DNA of 32,000 nucleotides from Candidatus Harpocratesius repetitus (GTDB lineage Archaea; Asgardarchaeota; Lokiarchaeia; Sigyniarchaeales; Promethearchaeaceae), in contig JAIZWK010000001.1 in the NCBI GenBank assembly GCA_021498095.1, positions 240,001-272,000 on the forward strand, written 5' to 3'. The notes beneath the pieces are model-generated. The model was not told the origin of the DNA. It saw only the letters and a list, made by a program, of their open reading frames with translations, and made no database searches. Made by a program: the position numbers and the translations under genes. Every line of letters begins with the position of its first letter. Position 1 is the first letter of the stretch. Positions 3,939 through 31,012 of this stretch are shown piece by piece.

Positions 3939-4055
3939 AAAATTTTTTTTAAGTTAATAAGATTAATCATTATCAAATCAGAACTCACAAAATCGAACAA
4001 AATTCTTATAAGGATCAGCTACAGATATTATTACAATGAATGCTGGAGGAGAAAC

Positions 4056-6929
4056 GTGGCAATCGCATACTATTTGAACGATGATACTGATACTCCCGCC
4101 CATATGCAGACAGTTGAAGGTATATTTAAACGCTTTCATAGCTCATCGGAGGGACTATCAACAGAAACAGCAAATTTACGATTAAAGAAAGCGGGATCGA
4201 ATAAAATACCCAAACGGAAAAAAAGTTTTTATCAGAAATATGTAAAACCCGTTGTAAATTTGATGATGTTGATTCTGTTTATTGCCGCACTGGTTCAAAT
4301 TTTCTTCTATTACAAGTATAATGAAGGATCACTATTTGGACCCGTGGTTATTATATTTATTTTACTTCTTAATTTAATTATCGGAATGCGACAGCAATAT
4401 AAAGCTGAAAAGACGTTAGATGCTTTAGAAAAATTAACTGCATTCAAAGCTAAAGTATTAAGAGACGGACATATCATAGAAATATCTACCGATCGAATAG
4501 TTCCTGGAGACATAATGATTCTTTCTCAAGGAGATTTCATTTCAGCTGACGGTAGATTAATTGAAGTGAATGATTTTTCTGTAAATGAATCAATTTTAAC
4601 AGGAGAAATAAATCCAGTAAATAAAATTGTAGAAAGGTTGGAGAAACGAGATTTATCACTTCAAGAACAAGTAAACATGGTATTCAATTCGACATTTGTT
4701 GCTTCTGGAAATGCGAGAGCAGTAATAACTGCTACTGGGATACATACTGAAATTGGAAAAATATCGAAAGGTATTGTTCAAAAAGAGAAACGAGATATCC
4801 CATTACAGCACCAAATGAATAAATTGGCAACAGGTTTAGGACTGCTTGTTTTAGGAATTGTAGTTCTTCTATTTTTAGTTCAATATTTGCAACACGGAAT
4901 AACAGATTTGATTTCTGAGTTAAGTTGGCTTATTTATTTAGCAGTTGCTGCGATTCCTCTCAATTTTCCAATTATTACGACATTAATTTTATTAACTGGG
5001 GTTATTCAATTAGCTCGAAAACAAGCAATCGTTAGAAACCTAAATTCTGTAGAAACTATGGGGAGATTAACCTACATCTGTACTGATAAAACTGGAACTT
5101 TAACAAAAAATGAAATGACTGTTCAACAGATTTATCATGATGGAAAAATCTATCATGTTGATGGGATTGGGTATAAAGCAGAAGGAAAAATCACCTTAGA
5201 CAAGAAACCTATAGATATTATGCAAGAGTTATATCTATGGAAATTAATCAGTATTGGAGCGGTTAATAACAACGCTCAATTTCAAGAAGAAACAATTAAA
5301 CTCAAGAAAGGAAAAACAACTCAATTAAAAGTTCTTGGTATGCCTACAGAAGGTGCCTTATTAATTTTAGCAGAAAAAGCAGGGATAAAACCAGAAGTAG
5401 AAAGATCAAATCATGAAATGCTCCGAGAAATTAGTTTTAGTTCAGAAAGAAAACGTATGACCAAGATAATTAAACAAGAAGATCAAGTTCAAGCAATAAC
5501 CAAAGGAGCTGTTGAAGTATTACTTACTTTAAGTTCTTATACTATTGTTAATGGAGAAATTCAACCTTTAACTGGAGAAAAAAGACAAGAAATACTTAAA
5601 TGGACCCAAAATTTCGCTAAAAGTGGACTACGAACTCTTGGTTTTGCCTATTCGACATTACATGATATAACAAATTATAAAGAAATAAAACCAGAATTAA
5701 TTGAAAAAGATTTAATATTTCTTGGATTTGTTGGTATTTTAGATCCACCCCGTGAAGGTGTTCCAGAGGCAGTAAAAATTTGTCAAGAAGCCGGAATAAA
5801 GGTTGCAATGATTACTGGAGATCATCCAATGACTGCATTAGCTATCGCAAAGAAGACTAATATTTACCATGATGGTGATTTAATCGCTAGTGGTCATGAG
5901 ATTAGAAATATGGATGCTAATGATATCCTAAAAACTACAGTATTTTCAAGAGTAGCACCTGAGGATAAAGAAATAATTGTGAAATCGCTTCAATCAAAAA
6001 ATCAAATTGTTGCAATGACAGGTGATGGTGTAAATGATGCATTAGCTCTTGAAAACGCAGATGTTGGAATCGCCATGGGATTAAAGGGAACTGATGTAGC
6101 AAAAAATGCTGCTGATTTAATCCTAACAGATGATTCATTTAAGACAATTGAAACTGCACTTTATCACGGTCGAGGTTTATTTAACAATATTAGATCAACA
6201 ATTGTATTTCTGTTAATAATCGATTTGATGGAATTATCTGTTTTAACCACAGTTTCCTTATTATTTGGTGGGGAATTTCTTAATTCATTCCAATTATTAA
6301 TCTTATACGCATCTATACACTTTTTCCCTCCAATTGGATTAATTTTTGATAAATATTCTTTAGATTTAATGAAAGAACCACCAAAAAAGGTAGGAGATCC
6401 CCTTATCACACGTTCCTATAAGTTTATAATGTTTGTTCAAATTATATTTATTGCTTTACTTCTTATCGGAATTTGGCATGCTGTTTATAAAGGTGTAATA
6501 TCATTAAATCCAGAAAATTTAACAGATGTTGTATTTACAAATCCAATTACAAACGAAGTTATTACTGGATATACATACAAAGGTGATAGGATAATATTTG
6601 AACCTGGAATAAATGATGAACTCTTTCGTGTATTTAAAGCACAATCCATGTGTTTTGTTACACTATTCATTTGTGAAATTTGGGTAGCGTTAGAATGTCG
6701 TTCAAATAAACGGAGTTTAATTAAAAATCAATTTAACATGGTTATGAGCATTTTACTTTGGTTTTCTGTTGCTATTCTAATCTTTTTAACCCAGAATCCT
6801 GTTGCACGTGCTTATCTAAATATAGTACCTTTAAGCACTATGGATTGGATTATTTCAATAGGAGCATCTTTTCTATTTTTAATTTTTGTTGAAATTATGA
6901 AATCATTTTTACGAAAAAATCAAAAATAA
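4056..6929 (+). CDS. P-type ATPase, P2 (SERCA/PMR1-like) scaffold with a non-canonical transport site
   Basis: Cation-ATPase N-terminal region, LTGE (A domain), ICTDKTGTLT phosphorylation site, FSSERKRM, KGA, DPPR, MITGD, MTGDGVND and about 10 TM segments. GTG start with GGAGGAG at 4045-4051. M4 reads AVAAIPLNFP instead of AVAAIPEGLP. Confidence 0.95.
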   Translation: MAIAYYLNDDTDTPAHMQTVEGIFKRFHSSSEGLSTETANLRLKKAGSNKIPKRKKSFYQKYVKPVVNLMMLILFIAALVQIFFYYKYNEGSLFGPVVIIFILLLNLIIGMRQQYKAEKTLDALEKLTAFKAKVLRDGHIIEISTDRIVPGDIMILSQGDFISADGRLIEVNDFSVNESILTGEINPVNKIVERLEKRDLSLQEQVNMVFNSTFVASGNARAVITATGIHTEIGKISKGIVQKEKRDIPLQHQMNKLATGLGLLVLGIVVLLFLVQYLQHGITDLISELSWLIYLAVAAIPLNFPIITTLILLTGVIQLARKQAIVRNLNSVETMGRLTYICTDKTGTLTKNEMTVQQIYHDGKIYHVDGIGYKAEGKITLDKKPIDIMQELYLWKLISIGAVNNNAQFQEETIKLKKGKTTQLKVLGMPTEGALLILAEKAGIKPEVERSNHEMLREISFSSERKRMTKIIKQEDQVQAITKGAVEVLLTLSSYTIVNGEIQPLTGEKRQEILKWTQNFAKSGLRTLGFAYSTLHDITNYKEIKPELIEKDLIFLGFVGILDPPREGVPEAVKICQEAGIKVAMITGDHPMTALAIAKKTNIYHDGDLIASGHEIRNMDANDILKTTVFSRVAPEDKEIIVKSLQSKNQIVAMTGDGVNDALALENADVGIAMGLKGTDVAKNAADLILTDDSFKTIETALYHGRGLFNNIRSTIVFLLIIDLMELSVLTTVSLLFGGEFLNSFQLLILYASIHFFPPIGLIFDKYSLDLMKEPPKKVGDPLITRSYKFIMFVQIIFIALLLIGIWHAVYKGVISLNPENLTDVVFTNPITNEVITGYTYKGDRIIFEPGINDELFRVFKAQSMCFVTLFICEIWVALECRSNKRSLIKNQFNMVMSILLWFSVAILIFLTQNPVARAYLNIVPLSTMDWIISIGASFLFLIFVEIMKSFLRKNQK

Positions 6930-7223: not shown

Positions 7224-8494
7224 ATCGCCAAACCAAATAACCACCCTAAAGGTGAACCATGAAGTTTGTCCCCAATACATAAAAATAAACGCCAAAATAA
7301 AAAGAAATCGAATTTTTATCAGCGTTTTATTCTTGATTTGAAAATTAAAGGTTTATCGTTAAACGAAATCCAGGATCATTTACGAGTATGTCATAATTAC
7401 AACAGCTCTATTAGAAGTATTAGAAATATTTTATGTGATTTAGGTGCAAAAGCTAAAATTATCAATCGATTTTACGATAACAAAGTTCTGCCTAAAATTA
7501 AAGTAGCTGAAGCCGATGAAATCTACCTGGGTCGCAATGGTATGTATGTAGGAATTGCTGATAAAAATTCCAACTATTTAGTTTCTCTAACTCAGTTAAA
7601 TTCTAAAAATACGGAATCTTTTCAAAAATTTTTTAGCCAATTTTCAAATAACTTAACTTCTCTGGTTGCATGGGTGACTGACGGGCTGCACACCTATAAT
7701 CCTGTGTTAAATTCGACGTATCCAGATATTACTCATATAATTTGCCACGTGCATACGTATCGGGAAGTAAAAAAAGAACAAGAAGTCTACAATCGGAAAG
7801 CGCGTCGGAAATATAAAAAGCTGAAGAAAATACGAGAAAATTTAAAAAATGCAGAAAAACACCTAAAAAGTAACCAAAAGACCGTCAGTGCTGCAATAAT
7901 TTCCATGAATGCGGCTGAATCTGAGCGAGATCAATTCTATTTGAAACACGGAATTAAAAAATACAGCATAACAAAAAAATTAAAAGCACAGCGTGCAAAA
8001 TATGCAATATATTAAATCTAAAATCATTGCTCTTCAAAGTGGACGACTTGTAAAGGAATTTAAAGATTTGTTAGACAGCAAATGGGATGAATTTGAGAAA
8101 AAAGAGCGTCGTTTACTGAAAATTTACTCTGATTCACCATATCCAATTGCTAAAAAACTAGCAAAAATTATTTCAAATAAGAAAAAGGTATTTAACGATA
8201 AAGTTGAGAAGATTCAAAGCATAATTCTACCCAATCGAGCTAATACCAACACAATTGAATCAATTTTCGGTAGATATCGACTTTTTTTTAAGAAATATCG
8301 AAAAATGAAAGATACTAAATACTCTAAGGCTGTATTTGAAATATTAAGATTGCACCATAATCTTTCTCCACCTTATACAGGTTCAAATCAGGATAGATCT
8401 CCTATAATTAGAGTCGGAATCAAAACTAAATATATAAATTCTATAGATCGATTATGTGGAATGATTTCGTGATTTCAGTAATTAGTTTGGCGAT
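7224..8494 (+). mobile_element. Insertion sequence (~1.27 kb) with imperfect 16-bp terminal inverted repeats
   Basis: ATCGCCAAACCAAATA (7224-7239) versus the reverse complement of 8479-8494, ATCGCCAAACTAATTA: 14/16 match, flanking a DDE transposase. No target-site duplication is visible. Confidence 0.7.
7259..8472 (+). pseudogene. DDE transposase with two frameshifts (IS6/ISH6/IS256-like architecture)
   Basis: HTH-like N-terminus (GLSLNEIQDHL..SIRSIRNIL), ADEIY (D), VTDG (D), CHVH, a helical insertion, and NTIESIFG (E) in the second ORF 7993-8472. ATG 7259 with upstream GGTGA is out of frame with ORF 7266-8015. Confidence 0.75.
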
Positions 8495-27985: not shown

Positions 27986-30900
27986 TTAGGAAATTAGCTG
28001 ATAATTAAATTCCAAGTACCCAGAGGATCCTAAAGATTGAATTTTAATCAGATAATAATCTTCAGGACCTTGTGGATCAAAATGCACACTAAAGCTTCCA
28101 TCAGAATACTCATTTAAATCTATAAAATTAGTTCCATTTTCTATCAGCCAAACACTTGCATTAAGCTGAGTGTGGAAAAATTGCCAGTTAAAAGCATTCT
28201 GAATTAAATTCAAAATATATGTATTTCCCCATACTACAGATGTTAAATTCAGCCATATTGCTTGATCATATCCTCCGAAATAAGAATCAGCATAAGTAGG
28301 CAAAAACCATTGTAAAGTCTCTCCTTCACTTACTGGTAAGGGATTATAAACCGATCCTAATGGGGCTTCAAGGAATTCCAATGGGATGGGTTCCACAAAT
28401 AGTGAAACATTCGCAAAACCTTCGTTGAAAATCGAATTTATCAGAATACTTATTGAATTTATTTCTTCGCCATTTATGGCAATCGGCTGTGGTAATCCAG
28501 GTAAATCAGAACGCATCATATAGGATTTGTTTTCGCTTGATTGGTAATGGTAAATTAACGTTAAGAAAATGGTTTGATTAACTTCAACATTCAAATCTAT
28601 TTGAGTATGATTGCTTATTTCGATCTTCCAAACATAGTTTTCAAATTCATTAAGTAAAATTGATTCAGTTAATGTCTCCCCTGTAAACTGAAGAAAAGTA
28701 TTAGCTTCTGCTTGATCATTAACATTAGGAAGTCCTGGTGTAGGTTGAGTTTCAAACCAATTCTCTCCACTATCTTTGTCTTCCCCAAAGCGACTTATTG
28801 TATTATGAGGATCTGTACAATAGGGAGCAGGAAACTCTGGATCCCATCCAAAGTCCTCAATAATTTGTGGGTCAGAATCTTGCATCCATAATACTGAATC
28901 AAGAATTTGACTTTCATTATCAAGTAATTCTATTCCACCAAATGTTTCATCTAAATCTACAGCTGCATGCAAGAAAATATATTTTGAGAGAGATGTATTA
29001 CATAATTCTATTCCTAAATTACTTGGTATTTCTTGTAAAAAGATACATAAATATTGATAGGGATCAATTGTAATGTTTGGTAATGGAATAATCTCACCTG
29101 ATCCAAAAGCTAAATGTAAAAGCCAGCCATTTGTTGAAACTGGTACATCTTCTGCGTTATAAATTTCCACATACTTATTCATAACATCGAAATCTATGAA
29201 ATTAACTTCAGTAAATGTTACGTTCTGCAGTGGGAGAAGAAACATAGTATCCAATTCTACAAGTGTACTATTTTCCAAATTTGGATTAAATTTAATTACC
29301 TGCACTTTTGTTACTTCTGAACTATCAATTACTATAGAGCTTTCATTATTATCCGGTGGTGTGAGGATGAAGCTTATTTTTTCTTTCGTACCGTCTTTTT
29401 TATGGAGAATCACTGTTATATACATCTTCCCATCTGCTTTCACAGTTAAATTAAATCTACCGGTTGCCTTTGAACAATCGATTTCTTCCAATAAAGCTTC
29501 AGTAGGACCTGCAAATGCAGAATCTGAAACACTATGAGTATCATTATGAATTAATATTTCATCAGGAGTAACTTGAGGAGCGCCATTTGCTGTTGGGGCT
29601 TCTGTTACCCGCCATACATTCATTTCATTCAAAATTTCTTCAAATGGTTTTCCTAATACTTTTTCAATTGCCTTTTTTGCACTAACCTTTTGGGTACCAT
29701 TCTTATACTGCTCAATGGCTTCATGTATTTGCTTTAATTTGTCTTCTCCGTATTTTTCCTTAATGAATTTAATTAGAAAGAAAGAAGCAATATATTCATC
29801 ATATCCCCCTTCCCACTCTCCAAAAGGAGAATCACTAAGATATTTTGCATGATCATACCAATTGTGGTCATTTACTCTTTCAAATTCTTTCATTACTTCA
29901 ACCATAGATTTTTTGAAATTTTTCATAGTAGATAAAATCCCAAACCAAACAGCCATTCCTTCGTCAAACCACCATTCGGGTTCTTCTGTTTCATGTGCCG
30001 TGCCATTTCCGCCAGCATGCTTAATTTGTAAAGTATGAAACATTTCATGCTCTACGGTATATTTAAGTGAGACGTCTGATTTCTTTTTTCCGATATCTAT
30101 TTTGATATCTCCTGTTTCTGGGTCGCAAGATCCTGAACTTTCATCACTCGTACCGTTAGCAAAGGTAATATTAACATAACCATCACCCCCTGTCTCAGGG
30201 TATCCATAACCTAATTTATGATAAAGATCGATGGAATATGTCGCATATTCTGTTATTTTCTTCTTAGCTTCCTTTACAGTCGGATGTCCATCCTTTTTAG
30301 GGGTTTTTCCTATGTAATATGTCCCTTCATTGGGGATATAATTAATTCGACCATTTTGGGCGCTTACAGTTTGGTTCGTATTTGGAACTGGAATCAAGAA
30401 TACATTTGGTAAAGCGGGTGTAGGAATGCTAGAAAACCAATTTGCAGATGTATTGTCATTATAACCCCAAATACTTAAACTCTCATTATCTAATGCAACC
30501 AACGAACTATTTACTAAGCTCCAAAAGGGAAAATTAGCAGTTATTGAAGTGCCCCATGCTAATGTATCGATTATTTTGCCTTCATTATCTCGAAGAATGA
30601 TTCCACCTTCAGTATTGTCCAAAAACTCTGAAGAATAATTCAGAAACACATCAATTGAGTGTTTTTCACGATTAACTTCAGATGGCCACTTATCTGAGGA
30701 TCCTATATGAAGTGCGATGTAATCAAATTCTTGGATGTTTAAAGCAGGTAATTCAATGATTTCACCATTAGTAGATTCAATTTTCCATCCTTCTATCGAT
30801 AATGTAGTATTGCCAAAGTAATAAAGTTCAATCCACTCCAGTCCAGGAGTATCAGCATGATAACTTACTTCATTAAATTGAAATGGAACGAACTTGAATT

Positions 30901-31012
30901 TTTCTTCAGTTTCTACAAGTTTAGGCCAATAATAATACCAACCTGCGAATCCTCCACCAATTAACGCAATAAATATAGCAACAATTATTATATTTTTTCC
31001 TTTTTTTACCAT
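27986..31012 (-). CDS. Membrane-anchored extracellular protein: lamin-tail domain + gluzincin metallopeptidase + lamin-tail domain + C-terminal beta-rich region
   Basis: N-terminal signal anchor; LTD1 (FNEV..EWIELY..GWKI..DTLAWG..PTPALPN); HEMFH (30035-30049) with downstream WFDEG; LTD2 (FTEV..YVEIYN..NGW..DSVLW..PTPGLPN). Confidence 0.8.
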   Translation of the reverse strand: MVKKGKNIIIVAIFIALIGGGFAGWYYYWPKLVETEEKFKFVPFQFNEVSYHADTPGLEWIELYYFGNTTLSIEGWKIESTNGEIIELPALNIQEFDYIALHIGSSDKWPSEVNREKHSIDVFLNYSSEFLDNTEGGIILRDNEGKIIDTLAWGTSITANFPFWSLVNSSLVALDNESLSIWGYNDNTSANWFSSIPTPALPNVFLIPVPNTNQTVSAQNGRINYIPNEGTYYIGKTPKKDGHPTVKEAKKKITEYATYSIDLYHKLGYGYPETGGDGYVNITFANGTSDESSGSCDPETGDIKIDIGKKKSDVSLKYTVEHEMFHTLQIKHAGGNGTAHETEEPEWWFDEGMAVWFGILSTMKNFKKSMVEVMKEFERVNDHNWYDHAKYLSDSPFGEWEGGYDEYIASFFLIKFIKEKYGEDKLKQIHEAIEQYKNGTQKVSAKKAIEKVLGKPFEEILNEMNVWRVTEAPTANGAPQVTPDEILIHNDTHSVSDSAFAGPTEALLEEIDCSKATGRFNLTVKADGKMYITVILHKKDGTKEKISFILTPPDNNESSIVIDSSEVTKVQVIKFNPNLENSTLVELDTMFLLPLQNVTFTEVNFIDFDVMNKYVEIYNAEDVPVSTNGWLLHLAFGSGEIIPLPNITIDPYQYLCIFLQEIPSNLGIELCNTSLSKYIFLHAAVDLDETFGGIELLDNESQILDSVLWMQDSDPQIIEDFGWDPEFPAPYCTDPHNTISRFGEDKDSGENWFETQPTPGLPNVNDQAEANTFLQFTGETLTESILLNEFENYVWKIEISNHTQIDLNVEVNQTIFLTLIYHYQSSENKSYMMRSDLPGLPQPIAINGEEINSISILINSIFNEGFANVSLFVEPIPLEFLEAPLGSVYNPLPVSEGETLQWFLPTYADSYFGGYDQAIWLNLTSVVWGNTYILNLIQNAFNWQFFHTQLNASVWLIENGTNFIDLNEYSDGSFSVHFDPQGPEDYYLIKIQSLGSSGYLEFNYQLIS

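Follow-up and report, generated by a model that had tools for sequence, protein, structure and literature searches.

A P2-type ATPase of an Asgard archaeon belongs to a distinct clade with a conserved, rewritten transport site

The stretch of DNA analyzed here, hereafter the window, comprises 32,000 nucleotides from the Asgard archaeon Candidatus Harpocratesius repetitus (GenBank assembly GCA_021498095.1, contig JAIZWK010000001.1, positions 240,001 to 272,000) and has a low G+C content of ~30%. It carries a gene for a P-type ATPase (hereafter the window pump), which is listed in Table 1 together with a ribosome-binding-like sequence, the catalytic motifs and the segments of the transmembrane helices M4, M5, M6 and M8 that are discussed below. 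The product matches the Pfam families Cation_ATPase_N, E1-E2_ATPase, Hydrolase, Cation_ATPase and Cation_ATPase_C, that is, the full P2 (type-II) architecture, and the matches to Cation_ATPase_N and Cation_ATPase_C, by which P2-type pumps are recognized, are above cut-off. Membership in the P-type ATPase superfamily (HAD-IC) is clear from the complete set of motifs, the Pfam matches above cut-off and a score of 278 bits on TIGR01494 (cut-off 62). An earlier note on this DNA, made by reading the sequence, had described the catalytic motifs TGE, DKTGT, KGA, TGD and GDGVND as intact, and each was indeed found in place. Judging from its sequence, the window pump is a complete ATPase of the P2 type and looks competent for catalysis.

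Table 1. Features of the window pump gene and its product (positions in the window; strand; reading and basis).
Feature	Position	Strand	Reading and basis
P-type ATPase gene	4056..6929	+	GTG start, 957 amino acids (P0001); open reading frame read in sequence
GGAGG, ribosome-binding-like	4045..4049	+	6 nt 5′ of the GTG start; read in sequence
TGE(I), A-domain dephosphorylation motif	4599..4610	+	motif read at coordinates
M4 AVAAIPLNFP	4941..4970	+	HMMER alignment, residue table, AlphaFold2 model
M4 Asn303 codon	4962..4964	+	SERCA G310 position
DKTGT phosphorylation motif, Asp344	5085..5099	+	motif read at coordinates
KGA nucleotide-binding motif	5502..5510	+	motif read at coordinates
TGD motif, P domain	5814..5822	+	motif read at coordinates
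GDGVND hinge motif	6021..6038	+	motif read at coordinates
M5 IIDLME	6216..6233	+	residue table
M5 Glu726 codon	6231..6233	+	SERCA E771 position
M6 QLLILYASIHFFP	6291..6329	+	HMMER alignment, residue table, AlphaFold2 model
M6 His755 codon	6318..6320	+	SERCA D800 position
M8 ICEIW	6669..6683	+	residue table
M8 Glu874 codon	6675..6677	+	SERCA E908 position

Few transporters are understood as well as the P-type ATPases, whose substrate classes can be read from a small number of residues in M4, M5, M6 and M8; in SERCA, E309 of M4 and N796 and D800 of M6 are needed for Ca2+ binding. At these places the window pump departs from the calcium pumps. In M4, an invariant Pro301 is followed by Leu302 at the position of E309 and by Asn303 at that of G310, and M6 reads LYASIHFFP where calcium pumps have NLVTDGLP, with Tyr751 at the N796 position, Ile at the T799 position and His755 in place of D800. 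The acidic residues of the other two helices were retained, since M5 has Glu726 at the E771 position, next to Asp723 at that of N768, and M8 has Glu874 at the position of E908. The HMMER alignment with the solved Ca2+-ATPase of Listeria, LMCA1, sets AVAAIPLNFP opposite AVAAIPEALS and QLLILYASIHFFPPIGL opposite QLLFINLVNDSLPAIAL, which establishes a gapless correspondence of M4 and M6 and with it the replacements E309 to Leu, N796 to Tyr and D800 to His. The reading of the earlier note, in which AVAAIPLNFP replaces PEGLP, the Asn and Asp ligands of a gapless M6 have become Tyr and His, and IIDLME in M5 and the Glu of ICEIW in M8 are kept, was thus borne out, down to the coordinates. The AlphaFold2 model of the window pump (predicted local distance difference test 84.7, predicted template modelling score 0.77) showed M4 unwound at residues 300–303 and M6 at residues 753–756, the breaks falling on Asn303 and His755; this predicted unwinding would place both residues where solved pumps have their ligands.

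The rewritten site is not peculiar to this gene. A search for relatives among 5.8 billion proteins returned a graded series, with identities of 93% (Candidatus Harpocratesius sp. of the Promethearchaeaceae, the best named match), 77, 66 and 57% and so down to 42%, and with the cultured Lokiarchaeum ossiferum and Promethearchaeum syntrophicum among its members; all of these have A-I-P-[FLIV]-N-F-P in M4 and L-Y-x-x-x-H-F-F-P in M6, the aligned orthologues reading PINFP and LYVLPHFFPPWG (L. ossiferum type) or PFNFP and ILYGSIHFFPP (P. syntrophicum type). A much larger, wider sister group at ~36% identity, with named members from Loki-, Thor-, Hod- and Hermodarchaeota, has L-L-P-I-N-I-P-L-L in M4 and F-L-S-I-T-L-H-x-F-P-G in M6, and PEGLP was present in only 2 of the 120 best matches. 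When 1.84 billion cluster representatives were searched exhaustively with HMMER, the best 150 matches contained ~35 more clusters (at 50% identity) with this signature. Further ATPases of the PLNFP kind, which the earlier note had suggested looking for, therefore exist, and close orthologues of the window pump have P-[FLIV]-N-F-P rather than PEGL. Lone decay or a sequencing error can be ruled out, as the orthologues at 93–42% identity and the paralogs described below all carry the rewritten site.

We define the resulting group, the PxNxP/His family, by P-(I/F/L/V/W)-N-x-P in M4, an invariant Glu in M5 and His in M6, a Glu in M8, monophyly, and a score of at least ~1090 bits on a family profile built from an alignment (A1) of 40 diverse members. 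On this profile there is a clear gap, with members at 1092 bits or more, canonical PEGL pumps at 937 bits or less and none between. The gap was checked on ten loci, of which the six with low scores had PEGL, PEAL or PESL together with NLVTDG and the four with high scores had PINIP together with the His. The window pump scored 1269 bits and has all four core residues.

The residues of the site were compared, in SERCA numbering, between 51 members of the family and 111 PEGL-type relatives. The E309 position was hydrophobic in 51 of 51 family members (Ile in 33, Phe in 7, Val in 5, Leu in 4 and Trp in 2) and Glu in all 111 relatives, and the next residue, G310, was Asn in 49 of the 51 and Gly in 98 of the 111. 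In M6 the family had His at the D800 position without exception (Asp in 102 relatives), never Asn at the N796 position (Tyr in 23, Ser in 10, Phe in 7, and others, vs Asn in 108) and Val, Leu, Ile, Thr, Ala or Ser at that of T799 (Thr in 99). The M5 Glu of E771 was found in all 51 members and in 99 relatives; the N768 position held Asn in 40 members and Asp in 5 (Asn in 105 relatives), and the E908 position of M8 held Glu in 50 members, compared with Gln in 55 and Glu in 51 of the relatives. Ca2+ site II has three side-chain ligands, E309, N796 and D800; as all of them are replaced, site II is abolished in the family. What is fixed instead is a polar set of Asn in M4 (G310), Glu in M5 (E771), His in M6 (D800) and Glu in M8 (E908), usually with Asn or Asp at N768. 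The recurrence of the same replacements in 51 of 51 members takes these changes far beyond chance.

Changes typical of the family were also found outside the site. The position of E109 was Gln in 46 of the 51 members and that of Q56 was Pro in 47, and charge was lost at the positions of E109 and D59; E109 and Q56, polar residues of M1/M2, and D59 are placed by us, as an assumption, in the cytoplasmic entry path, or funnel, of SERCA. After GDGVND, the window pump has Ala-Leu, as is typical of the family, vs Ala-Pro in P2 pumps, and the A-domain motif reads TGES, TGET or TGEP in other members. In the subclade of the window pump the pocket is rich in aromatic residues (F302, F304, Y751, F756, F757 and W876), which stand beside the acidic ones; unlike the two Glu and the His, these aromatics vary elsewhere in the family.

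In a tree of 97 sequences (IQ-TREE, LG+C20), with the P1B pump of the same genome as outgroup, all PxNxP sequences fell on one side of a branch with a Shimodaira–Hasegawa-like approximate likelihood ratio test value of 98, and a careful tree search with 25 + 25 sequences recovered the same split with a support of 100/100; in both trees the window pump lay inside the PxNxP/His clade. Depending on the root, the clade may be nested in the prokaryotic P2A-like pumps or be sister to them. The distribution was counted in genome samples, the best few candidates per genome being scored in the large searches. Of 151 genomes sampled from the Asgard phylum, at least 90 carry the family, and no family-level score was obtained in the sampled genomes of four other archaeal phyla (0/43, 0/301, 0/301 and 0/201, that is 0/846). 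The source names of the family clusters are Promethearchaeota, Hel-, Thor-, Hod-, Hermod-, Odin- and Sigynarchaeota. One cluster (P0182; MPINIVLL in M4, His in M6) bears the NCBI label Candidatus Korarchaeota, which could not be verified; in the phylum containing the Korarchaeota no genome searched had a family-level score, and P0182 is either a mislabelled metagenome-assembled genome or a case of lateral transfer. A contig search for related loci had at least 80 matches; the 80 listed were all non-Asgard, with none in the family, and have no bearing on the distribution. The clade is distinct, essentially confined to Asgard archaea among the archaeal phyla sampled, and rich in paralogs, Asgard genomes often having two to five copies, sometimes in tandem. 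In another order, two family paralogs stand head to tail with gaps of ~60–470 bp (L089:5970-11860, L090:5898-11872, L091:5208-11182, L092:1232-7495 and L093:6103-12033), one with DIMPINIPLL in M4 and the other with NIMPINLPLL or NVIPINLPIL; such tandem paralogs may be co-expressed or work together.

The window's own genome, a single contig of 4.36 Mb, encodes four family paralogs, one canonical Ca2+ pump and one CPC copper pump. All four paralogs have the M6 His, and their M4 reads PLNFP (window gene), PINLP (L003), PVNIP (L004) and PINIP (L005). The canonical pump (L002) has AIPEGLPAVVTT in M4, with the PEGLP motif, and WINLVTDG in M6, and the copper pump (L007) is a P1B pump with CPC in M4, to which the M6 comparison does not apply. 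Searches of this genome with the P3A and P3B families found no pump above cut-off. The retention of a canonical Ca2+ pump shows that the family is an addition to it and not its replacement. One of the paralogs (C1:839829-842795; L005/L006) was matched in two pieces (residues 21–188 and 193–954) within a single open frame of 1018 amino acids; it thus has an insertion close to where the A domain starts and is not broken.

The place of the family among the known subfamilies was examined with the NCBIfam hidden Markov models (HMMs), on all of which, for the subfamilies named here, the window pump scored below the curated cut-offs. Its scores were 491 bits for the PMR1 type and 485 for the SERCA type, then 415 (PMCA), 388 (P2D), 384 (P2C), 354 (P3A), 325 (P3B), 216 (P5) and 126 (P4). 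The four other family members that were scored gave 453–521 bits (PMR1), 396–496 (SERCA), 346–376 (P3A), 226–265 (P5) and 89–123 (P4), and the canonical pump L002 gave 714, 702, 258 and 93 bits on the PMR1, SERCA, P5 and P4 models, respectively. The two P2A equivalog models were missed by a wide margin (TIGR01522, 491 vs 798; TIGR01116, 485 vs 703). Among solved structures, LMCA1 was the best sequence match of the window pump (3e-121), followed by SPCA1 and SERCA, and in a Foldseek search of the Protein Data Bank the top 50 matches were all P2A or P2C pumps, namely SPCA1, SERCA and LMCA1 as the best, and the Na,K- and H,K-ATPases, with template modelling scores of 0.7–0.8 for the P2A folds. 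HMM scores and predicted fold thus place the family nearest to P2A. It shares with SERCA, SPCA1/PMR1 and LMCA1 the domain architecture, the ten-helix fold, the motifs TGE, DKTGT, KGA, TGD and GDGVND, and E771 and E908. It differs from them in P-(hydrophobic)-N-x-P instead of PEGL(P) with its gating Glu (PLNFP in the window pump), in the loss of the M6 Asn and Asp ligands (N796 lost, D800 to His; Tyr751 and His755 in the window pump), in E109 to Gln and Q56 to Pro, in the Leu instead of Pro after GDGVNDA, in scores 200–300 bits under the curated cut-offs, and in forming the separate clade with 100/100 support.

P3A H+-ATPases (plant AHA2, fungal Pma1 and the archaeal MJ1226 type), in which M4 reads PIAMP, resemble the family in the few charged residues of the membrane core and in the hydrophobic residue after the M4 Pro; however, their essential M6 Asp (AHA2 D684) is His at the aligned position, the score on TIGR01647 is 354 bits against a cut-off of 615, and the family carries at its two termini the cation-ATPase domains (N and C) by which P2 is characterized. 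P4 flippases (ATP8A1/2, Drs2p), with PISL in M4, also have a hydrophobic residue at the E309 position, but the family differs from them in its TGE(S/T/I/P) instead of DGET, its GDGVNDA instead of GDGANDV, its P-x-N-x-P and the two buried Glu and the His that it keeps. The match of the window pump to TIGR01652 (126 bits, cut-off 431) was limited to the N and P domains, no P4 structure was among the top 50 Foldseek matches, and no candidate for a Cdc50/TMEM30 beta subunit was seen in the gene neighbourhoods examined, in which no search aimed at one was made. The earlier note had excluded a P4 ATPase on the ground that DGET is absent, and TGEI here, together with TGES, TGET and TGEP in relatives, agrees with this. 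P5 pumps (Spf1/ATP13A2) have PP(E/A)LP where the window pump has AIPLNFP, and TIGR01657 gave 216 bits against a cut-off of 618. A specific kinship with P4 or P5 was rejected on HMM scores, motifs and fold matches, the trees containing no P3, P4 or P5 references. P1B pumps are marked by a Cys beside the M4 Pro, which the window pump lacks, and TIGR01525 gave 221 bits against a cut-off of 346; within that class, the P1B-4 pumps (CoaT/CzcP/PfeT type) have an M6 His-Glu pair (HEGxT) that ligates Co2+, Zn2+ or Fe2+ and so provide a precedent for an M6 His ligand, but with their 6–8 helices and SPC in M4 they share no common descent of the site with the family. The eukaryotic endoplasmic reticulum Mg2+ pump ERMA/TMEM94 also has a hydrophobic residue at the P2 Glu position of M4, which reads P-I-L-P, and Mg2+ is reportedly held there by M4 backbone carbonyls and a TM5 Gln (PMC13322241). 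ERMA/TMEM94 is without TGES and GDGVND and has DKQGI and the TM5 Gln, whereas the family keeps the canonical catalytic motifs and the Asn/Glu/His/Glu set. Among look-alikes of the window pump in the ESM Atlas, only generic P-type ATPase clusters were seen. The ligand set of the family matches, to our knowledge, no described subfamily (P1A/B, P2A-D, P3A/B, P4, P5).

The earlier note had read the window pump as P2-derived with a novel specificity and had seen in it a relevance to the origin of eukaryotic flippases. The P2 derivation, the intact engine and a transport site that cannot be the canonical one for Ca2+ stand; a specific link to lipid flippases or their origin is not supported, as the P4 and P5 scores are essentially no higher than those of L002 and the top 50 folds are P2A or P2C. 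We consider it very probable that the family consists of functional pumps of a separate clade with a specificity other than Ca2+, the latter because Ca2+ already has a canonical PEGLP/NLVTDG pump in this genome. The pump would run through a normal E1/E2 phosphoenzyme cycle, in which a single substrate from the cytoplasm would be bound in E1 in a site-I-like pocket between M4, M5, M6 and M8, formed by the His, the two Glu and the Asn. It would be occluded upon phosphorylation of Asp344 and released outside in E2P, amounting to export, and the two glutamates, perhaps the His too, would take up protons for the return stroke as counter-transport. The strict conservation of two buried Glu and of a His in the core of the membrane points to a cation or a proton rather than a lipid, and none of the results speaks for a lipid or an amine. 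As a first guess at the substrate we tentatively favour a borderline divalent transition metal (Fe2+, Mn2+, Zn2+, Co2+ or Ni2+), because His, carboxylates and an amide are a classic ligand set for such ions and these are plentiful in anoxic sediments; taken as a whole, with this substrate class included, the reading falls somewhat short of an even chance. Several observations weigh against it. The 147 family members examined have no tails or loops rich in His or Cys that could bind metals, and no metal-regulator or chaperone genes are conserved beside family genes in the neighbourhoods examined. The charge loss at E109 and D59, in what we take to be the entry funnel, is unexpected for a divalent cation, four paralogs that share four core residues are hard to explain by four metals, and His/Glu networks are equally typical of proton relays.

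The last point leads to an electrogenic proton pump or an exchanger of H+ and monovalent cations, to which we give a smaller but appreciable chance. Glu726, His755 and Glu874 would then form a relay of proton acceptors and donors, as Glu/His pairs do in LacY and in the a subunit of V-ATPases, the site would be sealed, as in P3A H+-ATPases, by the hydrophobic residue that follows the M4 Pro, and the pump would energize the membrane or control the cytoplasmic pH of a fermentative Asgard cell. The invariably hydrophobic E309 position (51/51, comparable to P-I-A-M-P of P3A), the lowered net charge in the site and at E109 and D59, presumably in the entry path, the lack of metal-binding accessory domains in the 147 members and of a P3A pump above cut-off in the own genome, and the presence of several paralogs per genome, as among plant and fungal H+ pumps, are all consistent with this. 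Yet the family scores lower on the P3A model than on the P2A models (346–376 vs 396–521 bits), the M6 Asp that is essential in P3A is the very residue replaced, and the A/V-type ATPases of Asgard archaea already pump protons with a more favourable H+/ATP ratio. If the substrate were instead large or organic (a polyamine or another amine, say, or an archaeal lipid head group) and bound in the His/two-Glu/Asn pocket, the family would be a new functional class whose substrate is no inorganic metal ion, a prokaryotic functional analogue of P5B or P4. This we regard as unlikely, even if the hydrophobic residue after the M4 Pro recalls P4 (PISL) and P5B (PPALP), the aromatic-rich pocket of the window's subclade beside acidic residues resembles amine-binding sites, and a VTT/DedA-domain membrane protein is encoded 3–4 kb downstream, here and in the 66%-identical relative. 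That gene is found in close relatives only, on the opposite strand and non-adjacent, and conservation across the family extends to the two Glu and the His but not to the aromatics. The same holds against it as against the flippase link: P4 and P5 scores at the level of the own Ca2+ pump, TGE(S) and GDGVNDA instead of DGET and GDGANDV, no PP(E/A)LP, and P2 ion pumps as the top 50 structural matches.

Equally improbable, in our estimate, is a hard divalent cation, Ca2+ or Mg2+, bound by the backbone carbonyls of the unwound M4 together with the retained site-I residues (N768, E771 and E908). These site-I-like residues are kept, databases and papers name such proteins Ca2+-ATPases, and the manner in which ERMA/TMEM94 reportedly holds Mg2+ at P-I-L-P would be a model for it (PMC13322241). 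The database names are automatic, however, no member reaches the curated cut-off of any Ca2+ or Mg2+ pump model, and the own genome already encodes a canonical Ca2+ pump. Furthermore, D800, which in SERCA bridges both sites and is essential for binding, is His in 51 of 51 members, and His is a poor ligand of Ca2+ and Mg2+. A relic or regulator without transport, which had lost its ion site and kept the engine for a purpose such as sensing, would account for the absence of the canonical ligands but is very improbable, as the replacement residues are invariant across a deep clade, down to ~33% identity, the catalytic motifs are all kept, and paralogs are maintained in at least 90 genomes. Taken together, invariant replacements, kept motifs and maintained paralogs argue for selection on a new site and against decay. 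The probability that remains goes to a monovalent cation or some other substrate.

No description of the family was found in full-text searches, whose coverage excluded subscription journals, and it is apparently undescribed, a new subfamily of a very well known machine. A 2023 review of open questions on P-type ATPases does not mention Asgard (PMC10654040). In a study of the Asgard transportome, such pumps appear as orthologues of a putative Ca2+-ATPase and are taken as support for Ca2+ signalling (PMC7997004), and a plant study used Lokiarchaeum sequences as ancestral Ca2+-ATPases (PMC13554806). For the PxNxP/His family the annotation “calcium ATPase” is probably wrong. With the substrate identified, the P-type ATPases would gain a new specificity class, and the orthologues in the cultured P. 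syntrophicum and L. ossiferum make the question directly testable. Were the substrate organic after all, the step from ions to large substrates would also have happened, or begun, in the archaeal lineage ancestral to eukaryotes; we know of this step otherwise only from the eukaryotic P4 and P5 ATPases.

The gene neighbourhoods give no pointer to the substrate. In the genus and in the 66%-identical relative the pump gene follows a cysteinyl-tRNA synthetase gene and a divergent TPR gene, and in the two cultured Lokiarchaeia it follows RNase PH and a conserved soluble open reading frame (ORF) of 95 amino acids. No neighbours were conserved beyond close relatives, and there was no metal-regulator, chaperone or other telling gene in the neighbourhoods examined. 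The 95-amino-acid ORF (L099:6534-6821 and L101:6614-6901) has no Pfam family, shares its strand with the orthologous pump gene and lies ~100–180 bp upstream of it, is 56% identical between L. ossiferum and P. syntrophicum, and is absent upstream of the window gene. In three genomes of another Asgard family, a pump of the PxNxP/His family (TIMPINIPLL) is flanked by a subtilase (Peptidase_S8) of ~655 amino acids (L095:6084-8048, L096:4683-6638 and 9762-11729, L097:4162-6135 and 9237-11210), and two of these three loci also have a protein of ~655 amino acids with a weak N-terminal match to the E3 UFM1-ligase (UFL1).

Directly downstream of the window pump, at 7266-8472 (+), lie two overlapping ORFs, the first with weak similarity to IS66/MULE transposases. 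In a genome of the same genus (L094) a minus-strand gene of 373 amino acids comes immediately after the pump, and by this layout ~4–5 kb, including the transposase pieces, looks like an insertion in the window genome. After the VTT/DedA-domain membrane protein mentioned above (10982-12031, –) come an NTP-transferase and a protein with an IFT52-GIFT domain, and the same order of VTT, NTP-transferase and IFT52-GIFT genes is found in the 66%-identical relative (VTT at L103:12562-13614); this probably reflects synteny by descent, with no functional link. The IFT52-GIFT-domain protein of the window (13363-14889, +; 508 amino acids) has a domain known from eukaryotic intraflagellar transport (PF23355, 57.7 bits), and at 27986-31012 (–) the window encodes a protein of 1008 amino acids with a Lamin Tail Domain (PF00932, 50 bits).

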